A stretch of DNA of 64,000 nt. Source: a virus (lineage: Duplodnaviria > Heunggongvirae > Uroviricota > Caudoviricetes). Position 1 is the first letter of the stretch, and the number at the start of each line of letters is the position of its first letter. This document shows positions 1 through 52,594 of this stretch, piece by piece. The translations under genes and the position numbers were made by a program. The DNA lies in the IMG/VR virus record IMGVR_UViG_3300027792_000307, positions 866 to 64,865 of that record; one strand, written 5' to 3'. Below the pieces are notes generated by a model. That model had not been told where the DNA came from. It saw nothing but the letters and a program-made list of their open reading frames with translations, and searched no databases.

Positions 1-859
1 TGAATAAATGAAAAAAGCAAAAACATTTGACGAAATCGACATCGAATATTATTTAGAATATCTATAATCGATCATTTTTTATTTTTTTCTCTTACGGTGG
101 GACCCGCGTGCTAGACATTCTCACGCGATCGAGGCGAACAAGGCGAGCTAAACATTGTCATGCGTGCTAAACACTGACACGCGTGCTAGAGAGTGTCTAG
201 CGTGCTATGATGTGTCGGGTGGGTCCCACCCTGATAAAGAATAGCATGGCGATCCTTGCCATGCCACCTATTAGCGTGCTAACCTAACACATGCGTGACG
301 ATCTTTGTCATGTCACCTGCTACCCTGACATTTGCTGTCGTGCCATACATTGACATGTCAAGACCTATCGTGCCAACATGTAACCCGTCAGGATTTTGCA
401 CGTCAATGTATGCCATTGCCATGCTATCCCTTGACAAGCGAAGTGTTGCCATGAGATTATTTGACTTGCCAGACCTTCGCACGGTGATCTTTGGTTTATC
501 AGCCTTTTCAGTTCCAATAATATTTTCTGTCATAATATACCATAACGCGTGTTGGTTTATATACTTTGCGTGACAAGCATTAGCATGGATCAGGTTACGG
601 TGGGACCGCCGTGCTAGAGTCTGTCATTCAGGGTCTGGTCCCACCATGACAATGATTATCATGTGGGTCCCACCTGTGCTAATTGTTAGCATGCTACAGA
701 TCCCCATGACACCTGTTAGCACGCCTCCTGTTGGCACTATTATTATATTAAAATGCGTATAAATGGCTTAAAATAAAAATAGTTGTATAAAATGCCCTAT
801 ATATTATAGAATTTAAATAAAATTGCATAGATATACGCATAAAAAAATAAAAGAAAGAA

Positions 860-1096
860 TTAAAGGGAAATGTAGCCTTTTTGCTTTAAATCCCTGAAAT
901 TCTTATCAGCGACCATGTTACTGAGTGCCATGACGCTGTTTCTCTTATCGAGAATATTTATCTGTTGCTCGCGGGACAAGTCATCCCAATTTTTTCCATA
1001 TACCCGTAAGGATATATATTTCATGGTGTCGACTTTCGTCATAATATACTGTATGGCGAGGTAGGTATATATAGTTTGCGTGACACATATTAGCAC
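860..1096 (-). CDS. hypothetical small protein (only plausible minus-strand ORF; lies inside repeat region)
   Basis: 78-aa ORF with non-repetitive, protein-like composition (..KYISLRVYGKNWDDLSREQQINILDKRNSVMALSNMVADKNFRDLKQKG..); no homology recognised. Confidence 0.3.
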   Translation of the reverse strand: MLICVTQTIYTYLAIQYIMTKVDTMKYISLRVYGKNWDDLSREQQINILDKRNSVMALSNMVADKNFRDLKQKGYISL

Positions 1097-1670
1097 GGAT
1101 CGTTGGATATGGTGGGACCGGCGTGCTACTTGTTAGCAGGAGGCGGCCGTGCTAGAGATTGTCACGCGTGGGTCTGATATTGTGTAGCATGGGGGTCCCA
1201 CCCTTGACACATGTTAGCGTGCTACATGTTAACATTGATCAGGCCGAAACCTTTAAATACCCCTCGCTGATACGGGGTTGTTAAGGTAGTTACGTAACAA
1301 ACGGATCCCCGTGAGACTTGTTAGCACGGACCATGATAAGAATTATATTTATCGTGTTACTGATTGGCACGGATTATATATAAAAGGAATTATAAAAGGT
1401 TAAAAATAGAATAATTAGCACGGTTATTTGTTGCATATAATTAATATTTATGATTTACATAATAATAAATCAAAAAAAGATATACAAAAAGATATATGAA
1501 TTTCTGCCGTGCTAATGTTTGCCGTGATATATATAAAAGTGAAAAACCTCTCTCCGAGAACTCTCGAAGAACCGAAAAGTATTTAAACTCACAATGGTTT
1601 ATGGTCTTGTCGGTGTGTAAGACGCAAGACAAGTCTTGCATATCGTGAGTACAACACAGGAGAAAACATT

Positions 1671-2207
1671 ATGTCTATGAGCAAACAAGACAAAAAGGAT
1701 ATTGCTGATATGATTAGTGCTTCATTACAGGCACTCATAACAGCAAAAAAGCCAGAAACTCCAAGTAAAAAGGAGAAACCTAAACAACAGGAGAAAAACG
1801 CCTCCCCACCACATAAAAAGAGCGATATTCCTCAACTTTTAACAGATATGCCTCAAAAGGAGTGCATTGATTTATTCGGTAATCTGTTACAAAGTGAACC
1901 GTACAAAGCGAGTATATCGCCCTTTTACGCAAAATACAATATCGTATTAGATACCGAGAAGTACGAGCGTAAAACCCTCACATACGAGCAAAAACACAAC
2001 ATTATCTTAAAACAACTACAGGGAGCGAGTAAAAAGGAATTTACCCGTCAAAAAGCACGTCATTTAAAATTCCTCCGAGAAAAACTCGCCTCCCCTCCAG
2101 AAACCAACATATTCGGAAAGGTAATGAGCGACAAAAACCTCGAAAACTGGCAAAACGCCCTTACAAAAGAGGTACAACGGTGGGAAAATGAATCCTACAA
2201 AGAGTAA
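1671..2207 (+). CDS. lysine-rich basic hypothetical protein
   Basis: 178-aa ORF preceded by aggag-like SD (acaggagaaaacattATG); K/E-rich, no domain recognised. Confidence 0.55.
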   Translation: MSMSKQDKKDIADMISASLQALITAKKPETPSKKEKPKQQEKNASPPHKKSDIPQLLTDMPQKECIDLFGNLLQSEPYKASISPFYAKYNIVLDTEKYERKTLTYEQKHNIILKQLQGASKKEFTRQKARHLKFLREKLASPPETNIFGKVMSDKNLENWQNALTKEVQRWENESYKE

Positions 2208-4091
2208 AAACGACAAATTCGACGAAAAGGTACGGAATTACCTTAAACAGAAAGAGAAAGAGGGAGTAATTCCCTCTTCCTCTATAAAAGAACGAAGAGA
2301 ATTTCAAAATAGAGTATCAAAGATGGATTTTTCAGAAATCCAAAAACTCTATGATAATGAATAGCACGGGAAAGGTTCTCATGCTAACTACCCTGAAGTA
2401 CGCCCTCGATGGCGTTGGGCGTGATAAAGACTATCACGAATCCCTATGGGAGATGGGCTTGACCCATGTGTCAGTAAGTAGCACGAGAACCCCTGACATG
2501 CTATTCGTTGTCATTATTTTTTTTTTTGCTGGACCATGCTACATGTTAGCACGGATCATGGTAGAGTGGGTGGGACTCCAGTGCCAATTGTTAACATTTC
2601 GCCTGTTTAAGTATATAAACTTTGTGGTGGAAAAATTCCTCGAGAGGTTTCTCCTGTTGAGCCTGTTTTCTACTATATAAAGGTTTCTGTAGTTCTCCTT
2701 TATATACCTTTCGGTTGTTTTGAGGTTTCCTCCGAGAGAGCATTTTTTGGTGGGACCCCCGTGCTAGACCTTATCAGCCATGGCACGAGGCGGCGTGACA
2801 CATGTTAGCACGCTTCAAGGTAAGCGTTGTCATGGGGGTCCCACCTCCGATAGATTTATATACTCATAGCAGATACGGGGCTGTTACGGTAGTAGTTTAA
2901 CAGGAGTAACGGTGGGACTGCCGTGCTAAACAATATCTCGCTTTCCACACGTACATATATATGATGTTGCGAATAATAATATTATATGAATTAGTACGCC
3001 AACAGATAGCACGGGGCAGGGTAGTCCCACCATAAATGCCGTGCCACGCTATAACATGACACTATAAAAGAGTATTATAATGGTTGCTATTATATAGTTA
3101 AAACGGCATTATAATGGTGAAAATTGAAAGGCTCTATATAAATGCCCCTATATAGTAAAGAAAATGCCCCGATTATAATAGAAATTGAGAGTTTTTTTAA
3201 GGAGGGAATTATAATGGCGAGGTAATTGTAGTATATAGTAATACTTGGATGTATAGAATTGTACATTGTGGGATAAAAAATAACGTGTTTATATATATAC
3301 ACCTCAGTATTATAAATGTAATCACCTTATAATACAATATACCGTTCATAAAACAATTTGTTGTTTATTCTCATTATACAATACATAGATATTCTTTATA
3401 CGGTAATTGCCTCGGAAAAGGTTTTATCTATTGTTACATATAATAGCAGTTTATTGCGTGGAATGTAATAGCAACAGGAATAATACCACCCGAAACGTAG
3501 AGCCGTCAATTATTAATGGGCATATATAGAACTATATTCCTTGACCGAAAGGTTTATAAACCCTGTTCGGTTCTACCTATTGACGATGAAACTTTCGTCA
3601 GGAACGTGAGAAAGTATGAAATGCAATAATAACGGCAAGAACAAGCAATATAACGTAACAAACAAGCAACTATTAAAGGAATTAAAAGGCACAGGCAGGT
3701 GTATATATGCAAACTAAAGTACAATGTGATAAAGTATATTGTGGGCATAATATAGGGCAATTTTGCTCATTAAAAAAGATACATATTACAATCGGGGGTT
3801 GTGATATGTATAGGAATTGTAAAGGGTGTGATTAAAAATGAACAGAGCAGATTCTATAATGATAGGGGATAATCTATTATTAATATCCCAACAATTACAA
3901 ACAACCAATCAAGCATTAATAGAGATAATTAAAATAATGAGAGATGATTAAAATGCAATCAATAATAAAGAAAAAGGACTATATAATAGAGGCAGGTGAA
4001 ATAAAAAACAAGTTGTACAATTTAAATGTCGGAGAGCAACTTACAATACAAACACAATATACAACGAGAATATTTGAGAGAGTGATTTAAA

Positions 4092-4370
4092 ATGGCTTTG
4101 GAAGATATAATTATATATAAAGGGCATCAAATTGTATTAATTCGAGAAATATTAATAGATAAATTTGTTAATGGATATGTTTATCTCGAACATTTACAAG
4201 AAATGCCTAAAGAATTAACAGGGGAAACATATAGGAAGGGAAAAATAATTGGGGTTGATACAGCACACTATTATAATCAAAAAATGACTTACGAGCAAAA
4301 AAAGGAGGATGCAATAAGACAAATAAAAACAATTATAGATGAATACGAAGAATTAATAGGAGGTAATTAA
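4092..4370 (+). CDS. hypothetical protein
   Basis: 92-aa ORF with recurrent start context gATTtAAAATG seen at several neighbouring small genes. Confidence 0.5.
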   Translation: MALEDIIIYKGHQIVLIREILIDKFVNGYVYLEHLQEMPKELTGETYRKGKIIGVDTAHYYNQKMTYEQKKEDAIRQIKTIIDEYEELIGGN

Positions 4371-4556
4371 AATGCAAGACCTATTAGATAATTGGAGAAT
4401 GTTTAATACAATCGAGGTATTAGAAAAGGCAGGACAAACAGCAAATATTATGGTATTAGAAAAGGAGTTGATATAATGGGCAAAATAAGAGAGAAAGTTA
4501 GCGATATATGGAGTAAAATAAAAGAACAATATAAAAAGGACATGAGGTAGATAAAA

Positions 4557-5762
4557 ATGGTAGACATAAATAAATATACAAAAGCAGATGGAAACATTGA
4601 TTTCGACCTATTATATGAGGAAGATATGTCGGAGAAAACACAACAAGCAATTATAAAGATAGAGGCACAAAAGGAAATACCAACAGGAGTATTATCAAGT
4701 GCTAAAATGCTTGAAAGAGATATTAAATTAGCCGAGAGAAAAATGCCTTTTGTTGTATATAATGCCGAGCAGAAAGAGAGAATTAAAAAGGCAAAGAAAG
4801 AAAAGGCACGGGTTGAACAGGAATTTACTGAAATGGTATCCGAAAGGAAATCATTAGATGTAGCAGTAAAAGAAGATGATTTAATGGTAAATGAGATTAT
4901 TAATAAGAAAAACAAATCTCTTGAAACATTAAATCAGTCGGAAATTATGAATGTTGCCACAGTAAAGAACAAATATGGAAAGCAACGCAACATTATAATA
5001 GCAAATACCAAAATCGGAAGACATATAACTGAAAATGCTATATGGAATTTCGGTTGTATTGGCGATTATAATGTAGATAGTGTTCCACGTTCAAAGGTAA
5101 CTTGTAAAGGCACAGAGATTACTACTGTAAACACATACAATAAAGAAAATCGGAAGAATAAGCAATTAATTAGTAGAAGATTTTGCTCAAAAGTTGTAAT
5201 GTGTTGGGCAAAAATGGTTGATATGCAATATTCAAGTAAGGATATTGATAAACCAACAGCAATGTCTTTATGGGGTACACCAATAGAGTATCAGGGATTA
5301 GAAGGTGCTTGTTATCAGTACTTTATAAATGGAGAAACTATTGTTAAAATCCTCAAAGATATACTCTATATAATAAGAGGTAGACCTTACTCAAAGACCA
5401 ATTACAGTAACCAATTACAATGGGTTATTGAAAGGAGATTGAAATTAAGAAAAAGGAATCCCGACAAAATTACTAATGATATGAAAAACCGATTATACTA
5501 TACATATCAAAGTAATTCATTGGTATGGGGTTATCCTAAAGTTTCTCCTGAATATGTATTGGGATTAATAAGACACCTTGAAACGGGAGAATTTGGTAGA
5601 TTATTAAAGGAATATGATACACAAATAATGATACCTTTAATTAGTAATTTAAGAAGGTATCCATTAAAATGCACAGCATATCATAAACCTAAAGATAATG
5701 CCGACCATAAAAAACAAGCAGATGATTATGCAATAGACCAATATATATTTGAAAGGGATTAA
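4557..5762 (+). CDS. hypothetical 401-aa protein flanked on both sides by ~1 kb structured non-coding DNA
   Basis: Long uninterrupted ORF, good SD (aggtagataaaaATG); no recognisable motifs. Confidence 0.7.
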   Translation: MVDINKYTKADGNIDFDLLYEEDMSEKTQQAIIKIEAQKEIPTGVLSSAKMLERDIKLAERKMPFVVYNAEQKERIKKAKKEKARVEQEFTEMVSERKSLDVAVKEDDLMVNEIINKKNKSLETLNQSEIMNVATVKNKYGKQRNIIIANTKIGRHITENAIWNFGCIGDYNVDSVPRSKVTCKGTEITTVNTYNKENRKNKQLISRRFCSKVVMCWAKMVDMQYSSKDIDKPTAMSLWGTPIEYQGLEGACYQYFINGETIVKILKDILYIIRGRPYSKTNYSNQLQWVIERRLKLRKRNPDKITNDMKNRLYYTYQSNSLVWGYPKVSPEYVLGLIRHLETGEFGRLLKEYDTQIMIPLISNLRRYPLKCTAYHKPKDNADHKKQADDYAIDQYIFERD

Positions 5763-6811
5763 TAATCTCTTTCTTCTTTTTTTTTTACTTTTAGCCGTGC
5801 TACTTGCTAACACTTCTACTAATTACTTTTATATTTAAATGAGGCGATTCCAGATTCTACGTACAATATAATATATTAATAAGTTAGTACAAATTAGTAC
5901 AGTAGTTAGTACATAATACCATTGGAAAGAGTTATAATAATTGCCTCTATTATAAGAGTAAAAGGCAACTTTTTGGTATAAAATTGCAGTATATTATGCT
6001 GTATTACACCACTATATTCCTGATTTTTCTTCGAGAGACGAAAGGTTTAAGTACTCGATGATTTCGTTCTCGGAGAGATTTCCGAAAGACTTATAAACTT
6101 TTCGGTTGCGAAATCCGTACGGGTTGAGAACAAGTTTTCTGTTTGTTTGTTATTTTTGATATGGTTACTTTAGTATCCATATTATAACTTATACATACAT
6201 ACTTGAGTCGCATTAAAATTACCTTACCCAATCATTCGCACCTTTTAGATATACTTATACCTAAAAGGGGTTGATTATAAAGGCAATTAGGTTATTCCTG
6301 TATTGGACAGGTTTTTAATTAATCTAATGAGGGTTATAATCAATTCGGGAAAATTAGTAGATATTAATCCCATTAGGTTTTGGTAATACCTATTTCAACG
6401 CAAAATCTACACAGTAATACAGTATAACAAGACTTCGGAAAGGATTATAATTACTTTATTGGGTTGTTATCCAACCCTCTAATCCTTTTCTACATAATTT
6501 AAAAATGCTTACCCAATTGTAAAATTGGGTGTTAAATCAACAGAAGGTGAAGGAAAAAAGGGAATAGGGTTGCGTTTATCCTATGGTATAGGTTAGGTTA
6601 CATTACCATTAATGGTTCGATTCCATTAAAAATCCTCGAGATTTTATCCTATTCCTAAATATTATTTAAATTCAGAAGCATAATATGAGCATAAAATCAT
6701 TTTTAGAGCAAAAAGCACAAGATATAGGCAAAATTGAAAGGAAAATTGATATATATAGGCACAAAATAATTGATTGCCAAAAAGAGATAGAAGAATTAAG
6801 GAAGGATTAAA
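5763..6811. other. AT-rich structured non-coding region with repeated GGAAAG(R)-N-TTATAA (BRE/TATA-like) motifs and multiple hairpins
   Basis: ggaaagagttataataa (5927), cgaaaggtttaagtac (6041), ccgaaagacttataaacttttcgg hairpin (6086), ggttgattataaaggc (6270), gggttataatc (6329), ggaaaggattataatt (6434), ggaatagg..cctattcc 8-bp inverted repeat (6561/6645) enclosing a tRNA-like T-arm AATGGTTCGATTCCATT (6610-6626). Confidence 0.6.
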
Positions 6812-7024
6812 ATGAGCAATATAAAAGTAAAAATAGATAATGAAATATACAAGAATACAAGGCAGGTTGCATTAACAAATACAGAAAGGATATTAGACGA
6901 ATTAGCATTATTAATGAGAGAATTAACAGGAAATACATTAGAAATAAATAATGCAAGTAAAGAGAAAGTTGCATTAATAATTCAAGGAATATCTCATACA
7001 ATAGATTATATACAATGTGCATAG
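6812..7024 (+). CDS. hypothetical protein
   Basis: 70-aa ORF, ggaggATTAAAATG start context. Confidence 0.5.
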   Translation: MSNIKVKIDNEIYKNTRQVALTNTERILDELALLMRELTGNTLEINNASKEKVALIIQGISHTIDYIQCA

Positions 7025-7034
7025 AGGTATTAAA

Positions 7035-7217
7035 ATGAAAACAATTAGATACAATAAAATAGAACGGATATTAAGTGCCCATTTGATTGTATATAATGGC
7101 AGGGTACATATGGTAAAGGAAAATGTAGAATTAAAACCACGATTGGTTACATTAATAGATGGAGGATTATCTGAAGATGATTATGCTGAATTAAGGCAAG
7201 AGGCATATATATTGTAA
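7035..7217 (+). CDS. hypothetical protein
   Basis: ORF with gaggtATTAAAATG start context directly after the previous stop. Confidence 0.5.
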   Translation: MKTIRYNKIERILSAHLIVYNGRVHMVKENVELKPRLVTLIDGGLSEDDYAELRQEAYIL

Positions 7218-7356
7218 AGGAGGTAATTATGATAGAAATACAAACCGACAAACCTTTTGTATTACTAACGGAATTATCCGACAAACCAAAATTGGCGATG
7301 ATAGAAGAAACCAAAGATACAAAGGGTAATTCCAGATTTAAATTGAGGTTTATATA

Positions 7357-7614
7357 ATGACTCGTTTAAATGATAAAATTAATAAAGACATTAAATTGGT
7401 TAAAAATTACTTTAAAAATAGATATAAAAATGACTATATAAATAAACAATACACCATATGCGTATTATTATGGGCAGATAAAGATTATTGTATAAGATTA
7501 AGGCACGGAAATGCAATTAAAGATATAGAATATCATAATTCTGAAAAAACTTTAATAGAATACAATACTAAACATCATATAGATAGTATAACTAAATTGA
7601 GGAACAGAAAATGA
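7357..7614 (+). CDS. hypothetical protein
   Basis: 85-aa ORF; ATGA overlap with next gene. Confidence 0.5.
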   Translation: MTRLNDKINKDIKLVKNYFKNRYKNDYINKQYTICVLLWADKDYCIRLRHGNAIKDIEYHNSEKTLIEYNTKHHIDSITKLRNRK

Positions 7615-7841
7615 AATTAAGAAAGGCAGATTATTGTTTAATGAAAGGAACGTATTTACGCATTAAATCAGCAAGTTTGGATGATATAATTAGAGTTACA
7701 AGCACAAAATCAAGAACGATTAGAGGTAGAGTTTTAAAATCTCTTGTTTCAGAAGATGTTGGTAAACTTTATAGATATATAGTAGAAGAATTAGATATTA
7801 ATGTAATTAAAAAGAAAGATTTGATGTTGGAATTATTATAA
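7611..7841 (+). CDS. hypothetical protein
   Basis: 76-aa ORF starting in ATGA overlap. Confidence 0.5.
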   Translation: MKLRKADYCLMKGTYLRIKSASLDDIIRVTSTKSRTIRGRVLKSLVSEDVGKLYRYIVEELDINVIKKKDLMLELL

Positions 7842-7972
7842 AGGAGAATTAAAATGGAAGAAATAAACGAAGATGATATATTTGTTTTCCACGCAAGAAC
7901 AGGAAATAAAGTAATGCTGATGAAAATTAGTTTCTGTCAAGTATCCAGAGATTTTAAAATGGAGAAAATGTA

Positions 7973-8092
7973 ATGCAAACTTCCTGCCCGATTTGTAAAA
8001 AACCATTAAAGGTGTGGTATTCAGGTTGTGGAGGCAAAAAGTTTATGGGTTGCTCGGATATTAAATGCCAATTTAAAGAGGAAATTGAATAA
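7973..8092 (+). CDS. small zinc-ribbon protein (39 aa)
   Basis: CPICKK..(16)..GC..C spacing; ATG overlaps previous stop (aTGtaATGc). Confidence 0.35.
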   Translation: MQTSCPICKKPLKVWYSGCGGKKFMGCSDIKCQFKEEIE

Positions 8093-8139
8093 AATTTAGG
8101 GTTACTATATGATTAGTAACAGATATGGAGGTATATATT

Positions 8140-8337
8140 ATGGCAACAAAGAAAGAAGAAACCCAAAAACCAAAGGCAGTAGCACACACAATGACCATCG
8201 AAAACATTATGGCGTATCCTTATACAAAGGAAGGAGATGCCGATGGATTCATTCGCAGGAGATTAATTGGTCAAGTTGTGTTTGAAGGCAAAATCCTGCA
8301 GATTAATGGTTTCGCAACACAGCGAAAAGGTCAGTAA
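8140..8337 (+). CDS. hypothetical protein
   Basis: ORF with ggaggtatatattATG SD context. Confidence 0.5.
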   Translation: MATKKEETQKPKAVAHTMTIENIMAYPYTKEGDADGFIRRRLIGQVVFEGKILQINGFATQRKGQ

Positions 8338-8347
8338 TTCGACACAG

Positions 8348-8409
8348 AATCGGGGTGCATTACAACCCCAGATAAAGACCACACGGGCAATTAAAATAGC
8401 ACCCCGATT
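8348..8409 (+). terminator. perfect 11-bp-stem hairpin (AATCGGGGTGC..40 nt..GCACCCCGATT) followed by T-rich run
   Basis: Read directly; immediately 3' of CDS ending 8337 and followed by attattttaattt. Confidence 0.5.
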
Positions 8410-8432
8410 ATTTTAATTTCAAGGAGGAAATT

Positions 8433-8603
8433 ATGAGACTAATATCATTTATACTTGGAATTGTAATGATTTTTTGTTTCTTTTTAAATTGGAATTCAGC
8501 AAGAGTAGTAAGAGGAAACGGAAAATACATTGCAATTATATTAATGCCGACCTGTATCATTTTTGCTATACTTGATTTTATGGCAGCATTTGAATTATTT
8601 TAA
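8433..8603 (+). CDS. small hydrophobic membrane protein
   Basis: aaggaggaaattATG SD; 56 aa, two hydrophobic stretches. Confidence 0.4.
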   Translation: MRLISFILGIVMIFCFFLNWNSARVVRGNGKYIAIILMPTCIIFAILDFMAAFELF

Positions 8604-8934
8604 TTCTTAATACTACGGTAGATGATATAGCAATACCAAAGATGGATACACAAGGGGTATCGGCATATAGGGATAGAAAATATAAGTGTTGCCCTAAAGG
8701 AGTTAGGTGACGGCTTACTCCCCTTATATCATTCTATCTACCCATATCCTATCCTATAACTTTGGTTAAAGCCGATATAGTATTTGGAATTGGAGGATAA
8801 TTATGAACAGGTTTTTAAAGTGGCTATTATATGGCAAAATCCATTGGAAAATGCGACATATAGCATACTTTATAGTAGTTTGCTTGTTTTTGAGTGCATT
8901 TGTAAGCATATTATTAAGATAAGGAGGGAAAATT

Positions 8935-9177
8935 ATGGAACAAATAGAATATAAAGGGCAAAAATATAGAGTAAAATACACACATATAAGACCAATTTTG
9001 AATGGTAAAATACAATCGAGAGGCGGTACGACAGTTGCATTTATAACGGATAGAGAACAAAATGTGATTGCAAGCGGTCAGGCAAATGTATCTTTAAAGG
9101 ACACTTACCAGAAAAAATTGGGAAGGATTATAGCAACTGGCAGATTATTAAAGGCACTTGGATTACCACGAAAATGA
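8935..9177 (+). CDS. hypothetical protein (weak resemblance to phage N4 gp49 / Sf6 gp66-type small proteins); first gene of the contiguous small-gene array
   Basis: 80-aa ORF, aaggagggaaaattATG; ..TTVAFITDREQNVIASGQANVSLKDTYQKKLGRIIATGRL.. Resemblance is from memory only. Confidence 0.5.
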   Translation: MEQIEYKGQKYRVKYTHIRPILNGKIQSRGGTTVAFITDREQNVIASGQANVSLKDTYQKKLGRIIATGRLLKALGLPRK

Positions 9178-23480: not shown

Positions 23481-24155
23481 ATGGAAAAGAAACAAAAAAC
23501 AATAGTTGCGAGTACTTCCATAGTGGCAGCAGCCATAGTGGTTCTCGCAGCATTGGGAGGGCAGGTGTTTGGCACAGACACAACTGTGAGTGTTATCGTG
23601 CCTACAGGAACATATAGAATTGGAGATACAATTACTGTATCAATTCAATGTTCTCCGACAAGACCAGTAAAAGCATGGGAATTGAATGTAAATTTCAATA
23701 AGAATGTTTTGAATGCCAATGCGGTGTTTGAAGGAAATTTCTTTGTTGGTAAAACAACATTCTTTAATGCGGGAACTATACAGAATTCCAATGGAAAAAT
23801 TATCAACATATATGATTTGATAATTGGACCCGGAAATGTAACAACCCAAGGAAATTTAATTACAATATCTTTTACTGCGGTTGGGTATGGAACTAGTGCC
23901 GTAGAAATATACAATGTTGGACTTACAAATGAGACAATGTATATTCCAATTAGTATAGTTAATTCCACAACAATAGTATATTCTCCATATGATATGAATG
24001 CGGATGGTGTGGTTGATATGCTAGATTTAGTTGATGTTGCTGGGCACTATGGAGAAACTGGAACATCTGGTTGGATTATGCAGGATATAAACAAAGATGG
24101 GAAGATTTCGGTTATGGACTTGGTGTTAATATCTACTCATTGGGGTAGTTATTAA
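23481..24155 (+). CDS. secreted/membrane-anchored cohesin-like domain + type-I dockerin protein
   Basis: N-terminal hydrophobic segment; cohesin-like start TVSVIVPTGTYRIGDTITVSIQC; two textbook dockerin Ca-binding repeats DMNADGVVDMLDLVDV and DINKDGKISVMDLVLI at the C-terminus. Confidence 0.65.
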   Translation: MEKKQKTIVASTSIVAAAIVVLAALGGQVFGTDTTVSVIVPTGTYRIGDTITVSIQCSPTRPVKAWELNVNFNKNVLNANAVFEGNFFVGKTTFFNAGTIQNSNGKIINIYDLIIGPGNVTTQGNLITISFTAVGYGTSAVEIYNVGLTNETMYIPISIVNSTTIVYSPYDMNADGVVDMLDLVDVAGHYGETGTSGWIMQDINKDGKISVMDLVLISTHWGSY

Positions 24156-29927: not shown

Positions 29928-30072
29928 AAAACCCACCCGAAGAAATACAGGAAAAAACCTCGAAATTACGTAAATTTCTACATTTAAGACCAAAAATGAG
30001 GTAAAACCACCGAAAAGTATATAAACCCCACCTTCCTATTAGATATTTTATGAGGAGAAAAAGTAAATTAAT

Positions 30073-30342
30073 ATGAGTAACAATAAACAATCTAATAGAG
30101 TAAAAAAAGATTCAACTCTTACTACAGTTAATTGTTTTTTCTGTGGTAGAAATATAAAATATAAATATGATATTATTAGTCCAGAGGAATTATATAGTCT
30201 TTGGGGTATTATAAAATATGAGTCTGTATGTATGTGTGCAACATGTCAACATTTATATGAGGAACAACAGGAAGAAAAGGAATTAGATAGAATAAGACAA
30301 GAAGATGGATATGATTATTACTGGGAAGTAAGTAATCCTTAA
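30073..30342 (+). CDS. zinc-ribbon hypothetical protein
   Basis: CFFCGR..CMCATCQH. Confidence 0.5.
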   Translation: MSNNKQSNRVKKDSTLTTVNCFFCGRNIKYKYDIISPEELYSLWGIIKYESVCMCATCQHLYEEQQEEKELDRIRQEDGYDYYWEVSNP

Positions 30343-50335: not shown

Positions 50336-50872
50336 ATGATATGGATCTCAGCATTAAGTGATGTTGATTTTTGTGAATATAAATTTTATCATAAATATGT
50401 ATTGAAAACCCCAGAAACTGAGACAAACTCAATGAAAAGTGGAACTATTAATCATTATAATCTAAGTAAGAATCCGAATGGAGATAACGAAGTTTGGATT
50501 AAATATAAGGATGTGCGTGGAAAAATAGACCATATAGGTTATAGTGGAAATACATTAAGAGTTGTTGAATATAAGAGTAATAAAAATGGAGAAGTGTATG
50601 AAAGCCAAAAAATACAAGTAGCAGCCTATTGTTATTTATTGAAAAAGGAACTTCCTCTTCTATTTGAAAAATACGAAAAAGTTCAATGCGTAATTAGAAG
50701 GATTGGGGATTTAAAAGTTCTTTATGAAAGTGATTATACTCCTCTAAAAGAGATAGATATAGAAAAAAAGTTAGAAAAAGTCAATTATATATTAACTGGA
50801 GCCGAAATACCAGAAAAGGCTACAAACAAAAATAAATGTGCGAAATGCGGGTATAAGGATGTGTGTTGGTAA
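50336..50872 (+). CDS. Cas4/RecB-like PD-(D/E)xK nuclease with Cys cluster
   Basis: N-terminal Cys (DFCEYKF), core D..VVEYKS..QKIQVAAY, C-terminal CAKCGYKDVC (Cx2Cx5C) typical of Cas4 Fe-S nucleases. Confidence 0.6.
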   Translation: MIWISALSDVDFCEYKFYHKYVLKTPETETNSMKSGTINHYNLSKNPNGDNEVWIKYKDVRGKIDHIGYSGNTLRVVEYKSNKNGEVYESQKIQVAAYCYLLKKELPLLFEKYEKVQCVIRRIGDLKVLYESDYTPLKEIDIEKKLEKVNYILTGAEIPEKATNKNKCAKCGYKDVCW

Positions 50873-50873
50873 T

Positions 50874-52013
50874 ATGCCTAAAAAATTAACAATTGAAGAA
50901 ATGCAGAGAATTGCTGAATCTAGAGGTGGAAAATGTCTTTCTGAAAAATATATTAATAATAGGACTAAATTAAAGTGGCAGTGTGAGAAAGGCCACATTT
51001 GGGAAGCAGCTCCTAGAAGAAGTTGGTGTCCTTATTGTAGTGAGAATAAAAATGAGGATTTTAATATGGAATTTGATGATATGTCTAAACAAATAATTGA
51101 AGGATGTTTATTAGGTGATGGATGTATTGACGGTTATATTAAAAGAAAAAACCGTACATTTAGAATTTGTTGTATTAAAAAAGAATATATAGAATATCTA
51201 AAAACTAATTTTGAAAAAAATGGAATCAAAGTAGGTAAATTAATCACATATAAAATAAAAGATAGAGATTTTGGCGATTATATATCAAAATGTAAAGATC
51301 AATATAGTATAAGTTTATATGTCTATAAAGAAATAAATAAATTCAGGGATATGTGGTATAAAAATAAAAAGAAAATTATTCCCTCGGATTTAAAATTAAC
51401 ATCAATTAATTTATTACATTGGTTTATTGGTGATGGTAGTTTTACATTTAGAAAAAATAAAAAAGGATGTTGGGCTCACATACAACTATCAACAAATTGT
51501 TTTTCTTTATCGGATATAAATAATTTATTAAATAAATTAAAAGTAGATTTAAATCTTAATTTTAATAAATATGAAGTTAATCCAGGACAATACAAATTAT
51601 CTATTAGTAATTACAAAGAAATATGTAAATTTTTTGATATTATAAAAGATTGCCCAAAAGAATTTGTAAATGATTATGGATATAAATGGCCTACAGAAGA
51701 TATATTTAATTATTTAAGAGAGGCACAACTTCCCAAAAAACAACTTATATTTTATATATGCGATATTTGTAAAGAGATGATATCTGTAAGAAGTGAAACA
51801 GATTTAAAGCGTCATGAGAAAGGAATTTGTCAGAAATGTAACTGTAATATTATGAGAGAAAAAACTATAGATAAACAAAAAGAAAAAAATATAGAAAGAG
51901 ATTCTTTATATTATAGTCTGTATGAATTTGGATATAGTAATAAAGAAATAAAAAATATATTAGATATTAAAAATGATTCTTATGAAGGTTGGAAATATTA
52001 TAGAGGATTATAA
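50874..52013 (+). CDS. LAGLIDADG homing endonuclease with N-terminal zinc-ribbon-like domain
   Basis: LLGDGCIDGY and HWFIGDGSF (two LAGLIDADG motifs); N-terminal C..(n)..CPYC. Confidence 0.65.
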   Translation: MPKKLTIEEMQRIAESRGGKCLSEKYINNRTKLKWQCEKGHIWEAAPRRSWCPYCSENKNEDFNMEFDDMSKQIIEGCLLGDGCIDGYIKRKNRTFRICCIKKEYIEYLKTNFEKNGIKVGKLITYKIKDRDFGDYISKCKDQYSISLYVYKEINKFRDMWYKNKKKIIPSDLKLTSINLLHWFIGDGSFTFRKNKKGCWAHIQLSTNCFSLSDINNLLNKLKVDLNLNFNKYEVNPGQYKLSISNYKEICKFFDIIKDCPKEFVNDYGYKWPTEDIFNYLREAQLPKKQLIFYICDICKEMISVRSETDLKRHEKGICQKCNCNIMREKTIDKQKEKNIERDSLYYSLYEFGYSNKEIKNILDIKNDSYEGWKYYRGL

Positions 52014-52014
52014 T

Positions 52015-52587
52015 ATGAAGTGGAGAAATAGATATTTCTTTGAATGCGAACAATGTGGGAAAATAGTCCAAGAAAGATTGGATAATATAAGAGAAAGAAA
52101 ATATCTACATTGTAGAGATTGTAAATATAAAAAATTACACAAAGATTATATTAATGGAGACTTTAAAATCTGGAATAAAGGAAACCATAAGTGTCTAAAT
52201 TCTGGCAGAACACACTTTAAAAGAGGACAACATATATCTCAAAAAACAGAATTTAAACGAGGAAAACTACATTTACAATGGAAACAAAATAGGAATGAAT
52301 TAAGAACTCCATTAAGAGAATTAATAAGAGGATGTGCTAATTATATAGAATGGAGAGAAAAAATATATAAAAGAGATAAATATACTTGCCAAATTTGTCA
52401 TGAAATGGGAGGCAAATTAGTTTCTCATCATATTAATACATTTGATAAAATATTGAGAAAGTATAATATTAAAGATTTAGAAGATGCATTAATATGTAAA
52501 GATTTATGGGATATTAATAATGGAATTACTTTATGTAATTATTGTCATAAGTATGTTCATAATGCAAATGTATTAAATCAAAATTAA
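52015..52587 (+). CDS. HNH homing-type endonuclease
   Basis: CQICHEMGGKLVSHHINTFD..(n)..NGITLCNYCHKYVHN. Confidence 0.65.
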   Translation: MKWRNRYFFECEQCGKIVQERLDNIRERKYLHCRDCKYKKLHKDYINGDFKIWNKGNHKCLNSGRTHFKRGQHISQKTEFKRGKLHLQWKQNRNELRTPLRELIRGCANYIEWREKIYKRDKYTCQICHEMGGKLVSHHINTFDKILRKYNIKDLEDALICKDLWDINNGITLCNYCHKYVHNANVLNQN

Positions 52588-52594
52588 GGATAAA

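Follow-up and report, generated by a model that had tools for sequence, protein, structure and literature searches.

The question addressed here is what surrounds a lone large gene at positions 3100-6811 of a 64-kb stretch of viral DNA (IMG/VR record IMGVR_UViG_3300027792_000307; the whole 64,000-nucleotide stretch is referred to as the window). The gene, an open reading frame (ORF) for a protein of 401 amino acids (aa), stands between two AT-rich flanks, which a first-pass annotation of the sequence had described as structured and free of long ORFs; the arrangement had been likened to a replication-initiator gene beside its origin or to a locus of small non-coding RNAs. Our analyses find the 401-aa ORF where it had been placed, at 4557-5762, and assign different characters to the two flanks. 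The downstream flank holds, at 6218-6655 on the + strand, what is very probably a functional structured RNA, and the upstream flank reads as a promoter followed by tiny genes; the combined account, viz. an RNA acting in trans together with an ordinary promoter/small-ORF upstream flank, is one that we consider reasonably likely. Structure had thus been rightly suspected downstream (6039-6655) and wrongly upstream, where the sequence is largely coding.

The relatives used for comparison are contigs that encode homologues of the 401-aa protein, viz. L002, L077 (a contig of 137,847 bp), L078, L079, and L087, whose proteins are 38, 34, 33, 36, and 24% identical, respectively, to that of the window. 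A metagenome scan yielded seven loci, two of which were useful, and a profile search of a set of 5.8 billion proteins added one further usable contig. Downstream of the family gene, L002, L077, L078, and L087 have 0.6-1.2 kb without ORFs, sometimes separated from the gene by one small extra gene, and the start of such a stretch is seen in L079; this placement is conserved despite the 24-38% identity of the neighbouring protein. In the window, no + strand ORF of at least 40 aa is present in 5763-6684. Several sequence blocks are common to the relatives (e.g., TACCTTACCCAA, GGGAAA.TT.AGTAGAT, TTAGGTTTTGGTA.T.CCTATTTCAAC, and ATCTACACAG.A.TACAG), and the sequence between these blocks varies yet stays self-complementary. 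The folding z of window 6030-6665 is -5.25 for the + strand against -2.23 for the - strand, and that of the neighbouring spacer 5813-6038 is -1.36. No second copy of the structured element is found elsewhere in the 64-kb window.

Fifteen helices, verified by script and collinear throughout, were found in up to six loci, with sequences that differ from locus to locus. In an unedited MAFFT alignment of the window with L002, the nearest relative that could be aligned, 51 pairs, including those of a pseudoknot, are formed in both sequences (100%); 8 of these are altered on both sides, 7 on one side while still paired, and 0 are broken. Slid controls of the same two sequences, in which the partners were shifted by 1-3 columns, gave 31-50% pairing and 0-2 double changes. 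One example of this conservation is the long-range helix P2, which reads ATTACC/GGTAAT in the window, AATACC/GGTATT in L002, ATCACC/GGTGAT in L078, and AGTACC/GGTACT in L087. It is paired in 30 of 30 cells across five loci, and its sole two variable positions covary (U-A/A-U/G-C at one and U-A/C-G at the other); the alignment is unambiguous here because invariant sequence flanks P2. The pseudoknot is present in all five of five loci, 11-19 nucleotides (nt) past the 3' strand of P2, with pairings of four different sequences (GTAGAT/ATCTAC, GTAAA/TTTAC, GTCTA/TAGAC, and TTTGT/ACAAA). When each locus was folded alone, P14/P15 appeared as an outer helix of 7-12 base pairs (bp) with an inner hairpin, the segment having z values of -2.4 to -5.6 across five loci (-4.5 to -5.6 in four of the five), and the 3' domain was closed by a helix of 8-11 bp. 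The structure-covariance comparison with relatives, which the first-pass annotation had proposed as a check, therefore bears out the downstream helices, which are collinear and show compensatory changes across five loci. The coordinates of all features are summarized in Table 1.

Table 1. Features of the locus and its flanks, in window coordinates; paired arms are separated by a slash.
Feature	Position	Strand	Remarks
AT-rich spacer	3050..3545	.	ATTATAAT(G/A)G repeats at 3074, 3108, 3172, 3208
Canonical archaeal BRE/TATA promoter CGAAAGGTTTATAAA	3546..3560	+	Based on motif counts; kept in L003
Small hairpin TGACGA-N8-TCGTCA	3581..3600 (arms 3581-3586, 3595-3600)	+	Predicted 5' leader
Six or seven packed small ORFs, 24-92 aa	3617..4556	+	GGTGAT-type Shine-Dalgarno, ATTAAAATG start contexts
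401-aa protein of conserved virus family	4557..5762	+	Matches no known family or fold
Oligo-T tract	5770..5787	+	Probable archaeal-type terminator of gene cluster; T-run after stop in window and L002-L005
Operator-like palindrome CGTGCTACTTGCTAACA	5796..5812	.	Kept right after terminator in five relatives
P1 long hairpin/palindrome CGAAAGGTTTAAGTA ... ACTTATAAACTTTTCG with inner hairpin	6039..6104 (6039-6053/6089-6104)	+	In L002, L077, L078, L079, L087
Short hairpin GAGAA/TTTTC and T-rich tract (6135-6157)	6126..6157	+	TGAGAAC.AGTTT block conserved; T-run in three of five relatives
Core structured RNA, ~438 nt	6218..6655	+	Helices P2-P7, pseudoknot, P14/P15, P8, P9 domain
P2 closing helix	6218-6223/6382-6387	+	Long-range
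P3	6229/6269	+	Core helix
P4	6241-6248/6261-6268	+	Core helix
P5	6271-6280/6334-6343	+	Core helix
P6	6297/6307	+	Core helix
P7	6347/6368	+	Core helix
H-type pseudoknot	6347..6410	+	P7 loop GTAGAT (6357-6362) with ATCTAC (6405-6410), 17 nt past P2 3' strand
P14/P15	6438..6490	+	10-bp outer helix GAAAGGATTA/TAATCCTTTTC, inner hairpin GGGTTG/CAACCC
P8	6511..6530	+	8-bp hairpin, GTAA (GNRA-type) tetraloop
3' multi-helix domain closed by P9 (GGAATAGG/CCTATTCC)	6561..6655	+	
41-aa ORF, first gene of next + strand cluster	6685..6810	+	Weak start context

Several points weigh against the reading of this element as a trans-acting RNA and are best considered together. Most of the helices were located by eye and then checked by script, in only five or six homologous loci, and the covariation counts are partly circular because the helices were picked before that check was made. 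No consensus emerged from RNAalifold run on MAFFT alignments of all five loci, whose stems have diverged too far to be aligned by sequence; in sequence-based alignments, the strands of P5 and P7 are set in differing registers. Both the ends of the RNA and the positions of its promoters are ones that we infer. What connects the 401-aa protein with the RNA is conserved adjacency only, and this adjacency shows no functional link because gene order in these viruses is conserved genome-wide. The T-loop domain at the 3' end of the RNA is missing in L078 and L087 and hence cannot be its core function. Lastly, P1 could be a DNA-level element, as its arms look like facing canonical promoters.

The nature of P1 deserves separate consideration. 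Its arms are sequence-conserved and face inward, and each reads as an archaeal promoter motif, viz. a B recognition element (BRE) followed by a TATA box. The non-Watson-Crick positions of P1 in six loci are all G.U on the + strand and never A.C, a pattern that favours a + strand hairpin but that comprises only about five independent changes; P1 is probably part of the transcript. Scans of IMG/VR with two short patterns from the RNA core gave chance matches only (as seen in a blastn screen of 76 fetched loci), and a scan of the same database with the P1 pattern returned only a known relative and an apparently different palindrome. The latter, at 503-562 of L086 (IMGVR_UViG_3300044960_000211), is a perfect palindrome of the P1-arm motif, ACGAAAAGTTTAAATA...TATTTAAACTTTTCGT, in a viral contig without evident relationship, where it sits in a non-coding end region rich in AGCGAAGCG repeats. 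Such inward-facing BRE/TATA pairs may recur in archaeal viruses.

These properties of P1 lend themselves to a rival explanation in which the flanks are DNA-level elements, viz. a replication origin or regulatory palindromes beside an initiator gene, with P1 serving as an inverted-repeat binding site or as face-to-face promoters. The inverted, sequence-conserved arms and the similar palindrome in L086 fit such a role, as do the operator palindrome at 5796-5812, the winged-helix-like units in the model of the 401-aa protein, and the distance of only 3-6 kb between this locus and the repeat-dense region 1-3050, which in L077 lies at a switch of GC skew and coding strand. In 6218-6655, however, it is complementarity that is conserved while the sequence is altered, including that of the pseudoknot, and G.U pairs occur that only the + strand can form. 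DNA-binding sites conserve sequence, not base-pairing, and the downstream conservation of pairing rather than of sequence is therefore not expected of such a site. Furthermore, the folding is strand-asymmetric (+ over -), the 401-aa protein is without similarity to Orc1/Cdc6, Rep, primase, or any AAA+ protein, and there are no iterons inside 3100-6811 besides the single operator copy. We regard this explanation as quite improbable.

The distribution of BRE/TATA motifs bears on the same issue. The motif GAAAG-NN-TTATAA occurs exactly four times in the 64 kb, always on the + strand and always at this locus (3547, 5925, 6084, and 6438); GAAAGGTTTAAG is located at 6040, and a near-identical motif, CGAAAAGTATATAAA, lies upstream of the gene at 30073. 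The wider BRE/TATA pattern CGAAARNTWTAWRTA was observed 7 times against 1.84 expected, with 6 of the 7 occurrences within the first 6.1 kb. A purine-rich BRE directly 5' of an 8-bp A/T TATA box, as in archaeal promoters, is found at 3546-3560, 6039-6053, and 30011-30025. The likeness to such promoters extends to CGAAAGG plus TTTATAAA at 3546 and CGAAAAG plus TATATAAA at 30011, which stand 55-60 nt before start codons; the spacings to the first ATG, given as 57 nt from the 3546-3560 motif to 3617 and as ~48 nt at 30011, are compatible with transcription starting 23-27 nt past the TATA box. The motif at 6039 is letter-identical to a promoter-like element before a conserved gene in ten metagenome-assembled genomes (MAGs) of Thermoproteota/Nitrososphaerota, and in GTDB genomes the P1 pattern matched only the canonical promoter of archaeal MAGs, apart from chance bacterial matches. 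The BRE/TATA reading of the first-pass annotation was consequently right in kind, which the archaeal-type RadA and Hef/Xpf genes of the window also indicate, and it went too far at 6084 and 6438. The motifs at these two positions differ from archaeal promoters in that they are predicted strands of conserved RNA helices, and the 6039/6104 pair differs in that it faces inward and pairs with itself. Specifically, the string GAAAGGATTATAA found at 6438 forms the 5' strand of P14, with the counterparts GATGAAAGGTAT/ATACCTTTCATC in L002 and GCAGGAAGATAT/ATATCTTCCTGC in L077, and CCGAAAGAC..TTTCGG at 6086, which had been taken for a stem-loop of its own, is a portion of the 3' arm of P1. That local hairpin (6082-6105) is specific to the window, and its equivalent in all of the relatives is the 3' arm of the longer P1 hairpin. 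Annotators should be aware that a string resembling a BRE/TATA motif in such a genome can be one strand of an RNA helix, and that an "orphan gene plus empty flanks" may conceal a conserved RNA gene.

Between P1 and the core RNA, the short hairpin and T-rich tract at 6126-6157 form a possible terminator or attenuator. If the tract ended a first short RNA, the region could encode several separate small RNAs (e.g., a P1 hairpin RNA, a mid-region RNA, and a tRNA-like RNA), and for this the TATA-like strings found 25-40 nt upstream of P2 in every locus and the folding of the 3' domain as a self-contained unit can also be cited. However, the long-range P2 helix and the pseudoknot bind 6218-6410 into one unit, no match to box C/D, H/ACA, tRNA, or another small-RNA family was obtained, and TATA-like strings are commonplace in DNA of 30% GC; several separate RNAs are, in our view, very improbable. 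The small non-coding RNA locus that had been suggested is thus upheld for 6039-6655 in the altered form of a single large RNA of several domains, which a short hairpin RNA may precede. The T-rich tract and the TATA-like strings before P2 do allow a second transcription start.

It is also conceivable that the structured RNA acts in cis as a giant 5' leader of the gene cluster beginning at 6685, controlling read-through or translation in the manner of a large riboswitch or attenuator. No strong T-run lies between the end of the 3' domain (6655) and the ATG at 6685, only 10 nt separate the end of the closing helix in L077 from the next ATG, the Shine-Dalgarno (SD) sequence of the first downstream ORF is weak both in the window and in L077, and the hairpin with its U-tract after P1 could be an attenuator. 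Yet the distance from the end of the RNA to the start codon ranges from ~10 to ~290 nt, with AT-rich, unconserved filler, the first downstream ORFs of the different loci are not mutually homologous, and a conserved alternative pairing with the ribosome-binding site, of the kind an expression platform would provide, is absent. We hold a leader function to be unlikely.

For the trans-acting RNA that we favour, the following course of events can be envisaged. The core RNA (6218-6655, ~440 nt, or ~620 nt with the preceding P1) would be transcribed from a TATA-like element just past the operator palindrome, or from one ~30 nt before P2. Five relatives keep this palindrome, as CCGTGCTAC.TG.TA.CA, after the terminator T-run; repeats of the same family fill 1-3050, and a TATA-like element is located within 10-30 nt 3' of it. 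The predicted fold of the transcript is closed by a long-range helix and combines a junction of several helices with an H-type pseudoknot, a bipartite hairpin of some length, and another hairpin that is GNRA-capped; in three of five lineages, the 3' domain also has a tRNA-elbow-like pair of GG loop and T-loop. The transcript would then work in trans, not as a DNA site but as a stable RNA that binds proteins and serves as scaffold or decoy, and the T-loop domain possibly engages tRNA-recognising host factors. Only tentatively do we suggest that it represents an undescribed class, viz. a pseudoknotted "ornate" RNA of ~440-640 nt that is confined to one lineage of 140-155-kb archaeal-type viruses, made early beside a probable origin, that might form a ribonucleoprotein with its 400-aa neighbour or capture host factors that recognise tRNA.

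The upstream flank is, judged by its sequence, a promoter region followed by tiny genes and not a structured RNA, because 3050-3545 folds without excess RNA structure (z of -0.08), and because L003, a relative with 87% identity, keeps the promoter motif at 3546-3560 while losing the flanking "stem" CCGAA/TTCGG (ACGAA..TGCCG in L003), which had been described as a stem-loop at 3545. A similar motif, CGACAGGTTTAAGTAC, is present upstream of the corresponding cluster in L077. The real non-coding gap extends only over ~3050-3616 (~570 nt), and SD-led small ORFs begin at 3617/3707; the absence of long ORFs that had been claimed for both flanks accordingly applies to 5763-6684 and not to 3100-4090. 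Two other elements noted in the first pass are substantiated: the TGACGA/TCGTCA hairpin, which L003 retains with its stem intact and one loop base altered, and the tiny ORFs, of which 49, 30, 45, 92, and 34 aa are also among the gene calls on an identical public contig. An ORF of ~34 aa immediately 5' of the 401-aa gene recurs in L002-L005. The promoter at 3546-3560 probably drives the leader hairpin, the six or seven small ORFs, and the 401-aa gene as one unit that ends at the T-run 5770-5787. In L003, the promoter lies only ~260 nt before the big gene, and the window holds ~750 nt of extra small ORFs (roughly 3707-4370).

The spacer before this promoter contains the repeats that had been counted as four copies within 3062-3220; exactly three are ATTATAATGG (3074, 3108, and 3208), and the fourth, at 3172, is the variant ATTATAATAG. 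No sequence similarity is detected between the spacer 3050-3545 and the corresponding region of distant relatives, and L077 carries a comparable array, of TATAAAAA-type repeats, in its own spacer. At 3199-3225, overlapping one of the ATTATAATGG repeats, lies a mini-ORF of three codons (ATG GCG AGG TAA) whose Shine-Dalgarno sequence, AAGGAGGG, is perfect.

The lack of recognised homology reported for the 401-aa protein is true of annotated families; an exhaustive HMMER scan nevertheless identified at least 55 cluster representatives (28 of them below 1e-30), mostly of 300-500 aa and of metagenomic origin. The conserved core of the family comprises NFGSIGDY.ID..P, KGTEIT, LISRRF, and a C-terminal H..N.DDYD. 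In the AlphaFold2 model (predicted local distance difference test score 73, and >85 for residues 200-350), two helix-helix-beta-hairpin (winged-helix-like) units are seen at about residues 207-327. These modelled units hint at nucleic-acid binding and at nothing beyond it, and the protein is a conserved fold-orphan that probably binds nucleic acid. Sequence and fold searches gave no match to Orc1/Cdc6, Rep, primase, AAA+, or any other initiator, and the proposal of an initiator beside its origin thus receives no direct support.

A better candidate for a control region, genetic switch, or origin than 3100-6811 is the region 1-3050, on the basis of its sequence composition. Its GC content is 0.41 vs. 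0.30, and it contains 12 copies of GGTGGGAC / GTCCCACC in both orientations and >20 CGTGCTA / TAGCACG half-sites that form palindromes, and among these lie small genes of both orientations, every one accompanied by a BRE/TATA motif; inside 3100-6811 only one operator copy (5796-5812) and the ATTATAATGG repeats are present. The region is homologous to 6500-8470 of L077, which sits at a switch of GC skew and strand: left of the repeat region, skew is negative and the genes run on the - strand, and right of it, skew is positive and the genes run on the + strand. This switch lies ~3-5 kb upstream of the family gene, at the start of the repeat region, and may simply mirror gene orientation; in the window, GC skew is lowest at the window start. 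An origin near the locus and outside 3100-6811 is plausible because this repeat-dense region, at the skew and strand switch in a relative, is 3-6 kb away. The 401-aa protein could conceivably bind there. Two further arrangements within this region can be mentioned. Paralogous units at 1244-1299 and 2847-2902 (75% identical), each a BRE/TATA motif followed by GATACGGGG(T/C)TGTTA(A/C)GGTAGT, are bracketed by GGTCCCACC/GGTGGGAC repeats and may be small RNAs or leaders. At 2598-2725, three BRE/TATA-like motifs on the - strand accompany the motif TCTCCTGTTGAG, which also forms the P1 inner loop in L002, L078, and L087; this segment may be a degenerate P1 paralogue at the end of the ORF 2351-2680.

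The window has ~30% GC, and nearly all of its genes are on the + strand. They begin downstream of GGTGAT-type Shine-Dalgarno sequences, and transcription units close with oligo-T runs. The virus is ~155 kb in size and of low GC, and an identical 401-aa protein is encoded on a public contig of 154,999 bp. Recognisable genes include a family-B DNA polymerase (PolB), a ribonucleotide reductase, and a DUF2201 metallopeptidase/VWA protein with its ATPase partner. The recombinase scores as Rad51/Dmc1/RadA/RadB (E ~1e-18), far ahead of RecA (2e-7), and an ERCC4 plus HhH nuclease scores as archaeal Hef/Xpf (5e-32, 1e-23). The window is likely, with good confidence, to be part of a large virus with archaeal-type genes and signals, because RadA/Rad51, Hef/Xpf, and PolB genes occur together with BRE/TATA promoters and oligo-T terminators. 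Searches by blastn and tblastn of 50,697 phage records gave zero matches for the locus, the 401-aa protein, and RadA, and PolB reached only ~23% identity in the same records. Elsewhere in the window, 23481-24155 encodes a protein of 224 aa that carries type I cohesin and dockerin domains, modules of the cellulosome type that are unusual for a virus. Over 50336-52594, GC falls to 0.23; a LAGLIDADG homing-endonuclease ORF (50838-52013) is followed there by a ~580-nt Cys-rich stretch without an ATG-only gene call, for which an ORF of 204 aa (51973-52587) is listed. This segment, directly upstream of a glycosyltransferase gene, resembles a mobile intron or intein-type insertion.

In comparison with known systems, the locus resembles initiator-plus-origin modules (viz. 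Orc1/Cdc6 with ORB, or plasmid Rep with iterons) in that a gene for a protein of ~400 aa lies close to AT-rich DNA and not far from a region dense in repeats where strand and GC skew switch, and in that the protein model is winged-helix-like. It differs from them in that the protein resembles no initiator in sequence or fold, the repeats are found at 1-3050, outside the locus, and the downstream flank is RNA-like and not origin-like. Three RNA systems were considered and dropped: a TnpB/omega-RNA-like module (no RuvC or zinc-ribbon family match), a phi29-type packaging RNA (PolB resembles RNA-primed T4/halovirus types), and RNase P or SRP RNA (no conserved-region motifs and no Rfam match).

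The 3' domain invites comparison with tRNA-like structures, of which the bacterial YrlA Y-RNA-like RNAs, as mimics of the tRNA elbow, are an example. Inside it are a GG-loop hairpin (6580-6592, with the GG loop at 6585-6587), a T-arm-like hairpin (6609-6629, loop TTCGATT), and a terminal hairpin (6630-6644). The combination of a 5-bp stem, a 7-nt TTCRANY-type loop, and a GG partner loop that marks a T-arm is present as TTAATGG-TTCGATT-CCATTAA at 6609-6629, and the T-loop hairpin and GG loop occur in the window, L002, and L077. The likeness thus consists of an acceptor-like closing helix, a small GG-loop hairpin, and a 5-7-bp hairpin with the 7-nt loop TTCGATT / TTCAATT; the differences are an extra hairpin between the T-arm and the 3' strand of the closing helix, the lack of an anticodon arm, and the absence of the domain from L078 and L087. 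ARAGORN reported 0 tRNA/tmRNA genes in the window, and the Rfam tRNA model was also without a match. As a difference from Y-RNA-like systems, no Ro60/TROVE gene was found among the 28 of the 36 window ORFs of at least 150 aa that were scanned.

No Rfam covariance model matched anywhere in the 64 kb at gathering score. At E up to 10, window 1-9000 had no relevant match (to families including ROOL, GOLLD, HEARO, OLE, RNase P, SRP, tmRNA, and group I/II introns), and at E up to 5, the sole match in the relatives L002, L078, L087, and L085 was an unrelated tRNA. Box C/D and H/ACA RNAs were likewise without an Rfam match, and inspection of five aligned P1 regions revealed no consistently placed boxes. 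The RNA belongs to no described family and is counted among the "large ornate viral RNA" kind. ROOL and GOLLD, from phages and prophages, are large ornate non-coding RNAs (PMC5737381, PMC12286853), and cryo-EM has shown that large structured RNAs build surprising RNA-only assemblies (PMC12286853). The window RNA differs from ROOL and GOLLD in that neither covariance model matches it, even with E allowed up to 10, in that the genes and promoters of its virus are archaeal-type rather than bacterial, and in that no tRNA genes adjoin it in the window; in L087, a tRNA-Pro (TGG) is located at 7255-7327, ~1.1 kb downstream of the structured-RNA copy. It shares with them that it is virus-encoded, several hundred nt long, multi-domain, pseudoknotted, non-coding, of unknown function, and found by comparing metagenomic intergenic regions. 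To our knowledge, large structured non-coding RNAs of unknown function (viz. OLE, GOLLD, and ROOL) are so far bacterial and phage only. A comparably large pseudoknotted RNA in archaeal-type viruses would extend this class to the archaeal virosphere and, if the present reading holds, would be the first large ornate RNA known from an archaeal virus; with its core helices defined and an adjoining conserved protein that has no recognisable fold, it offers a new target for RNA structural biology.

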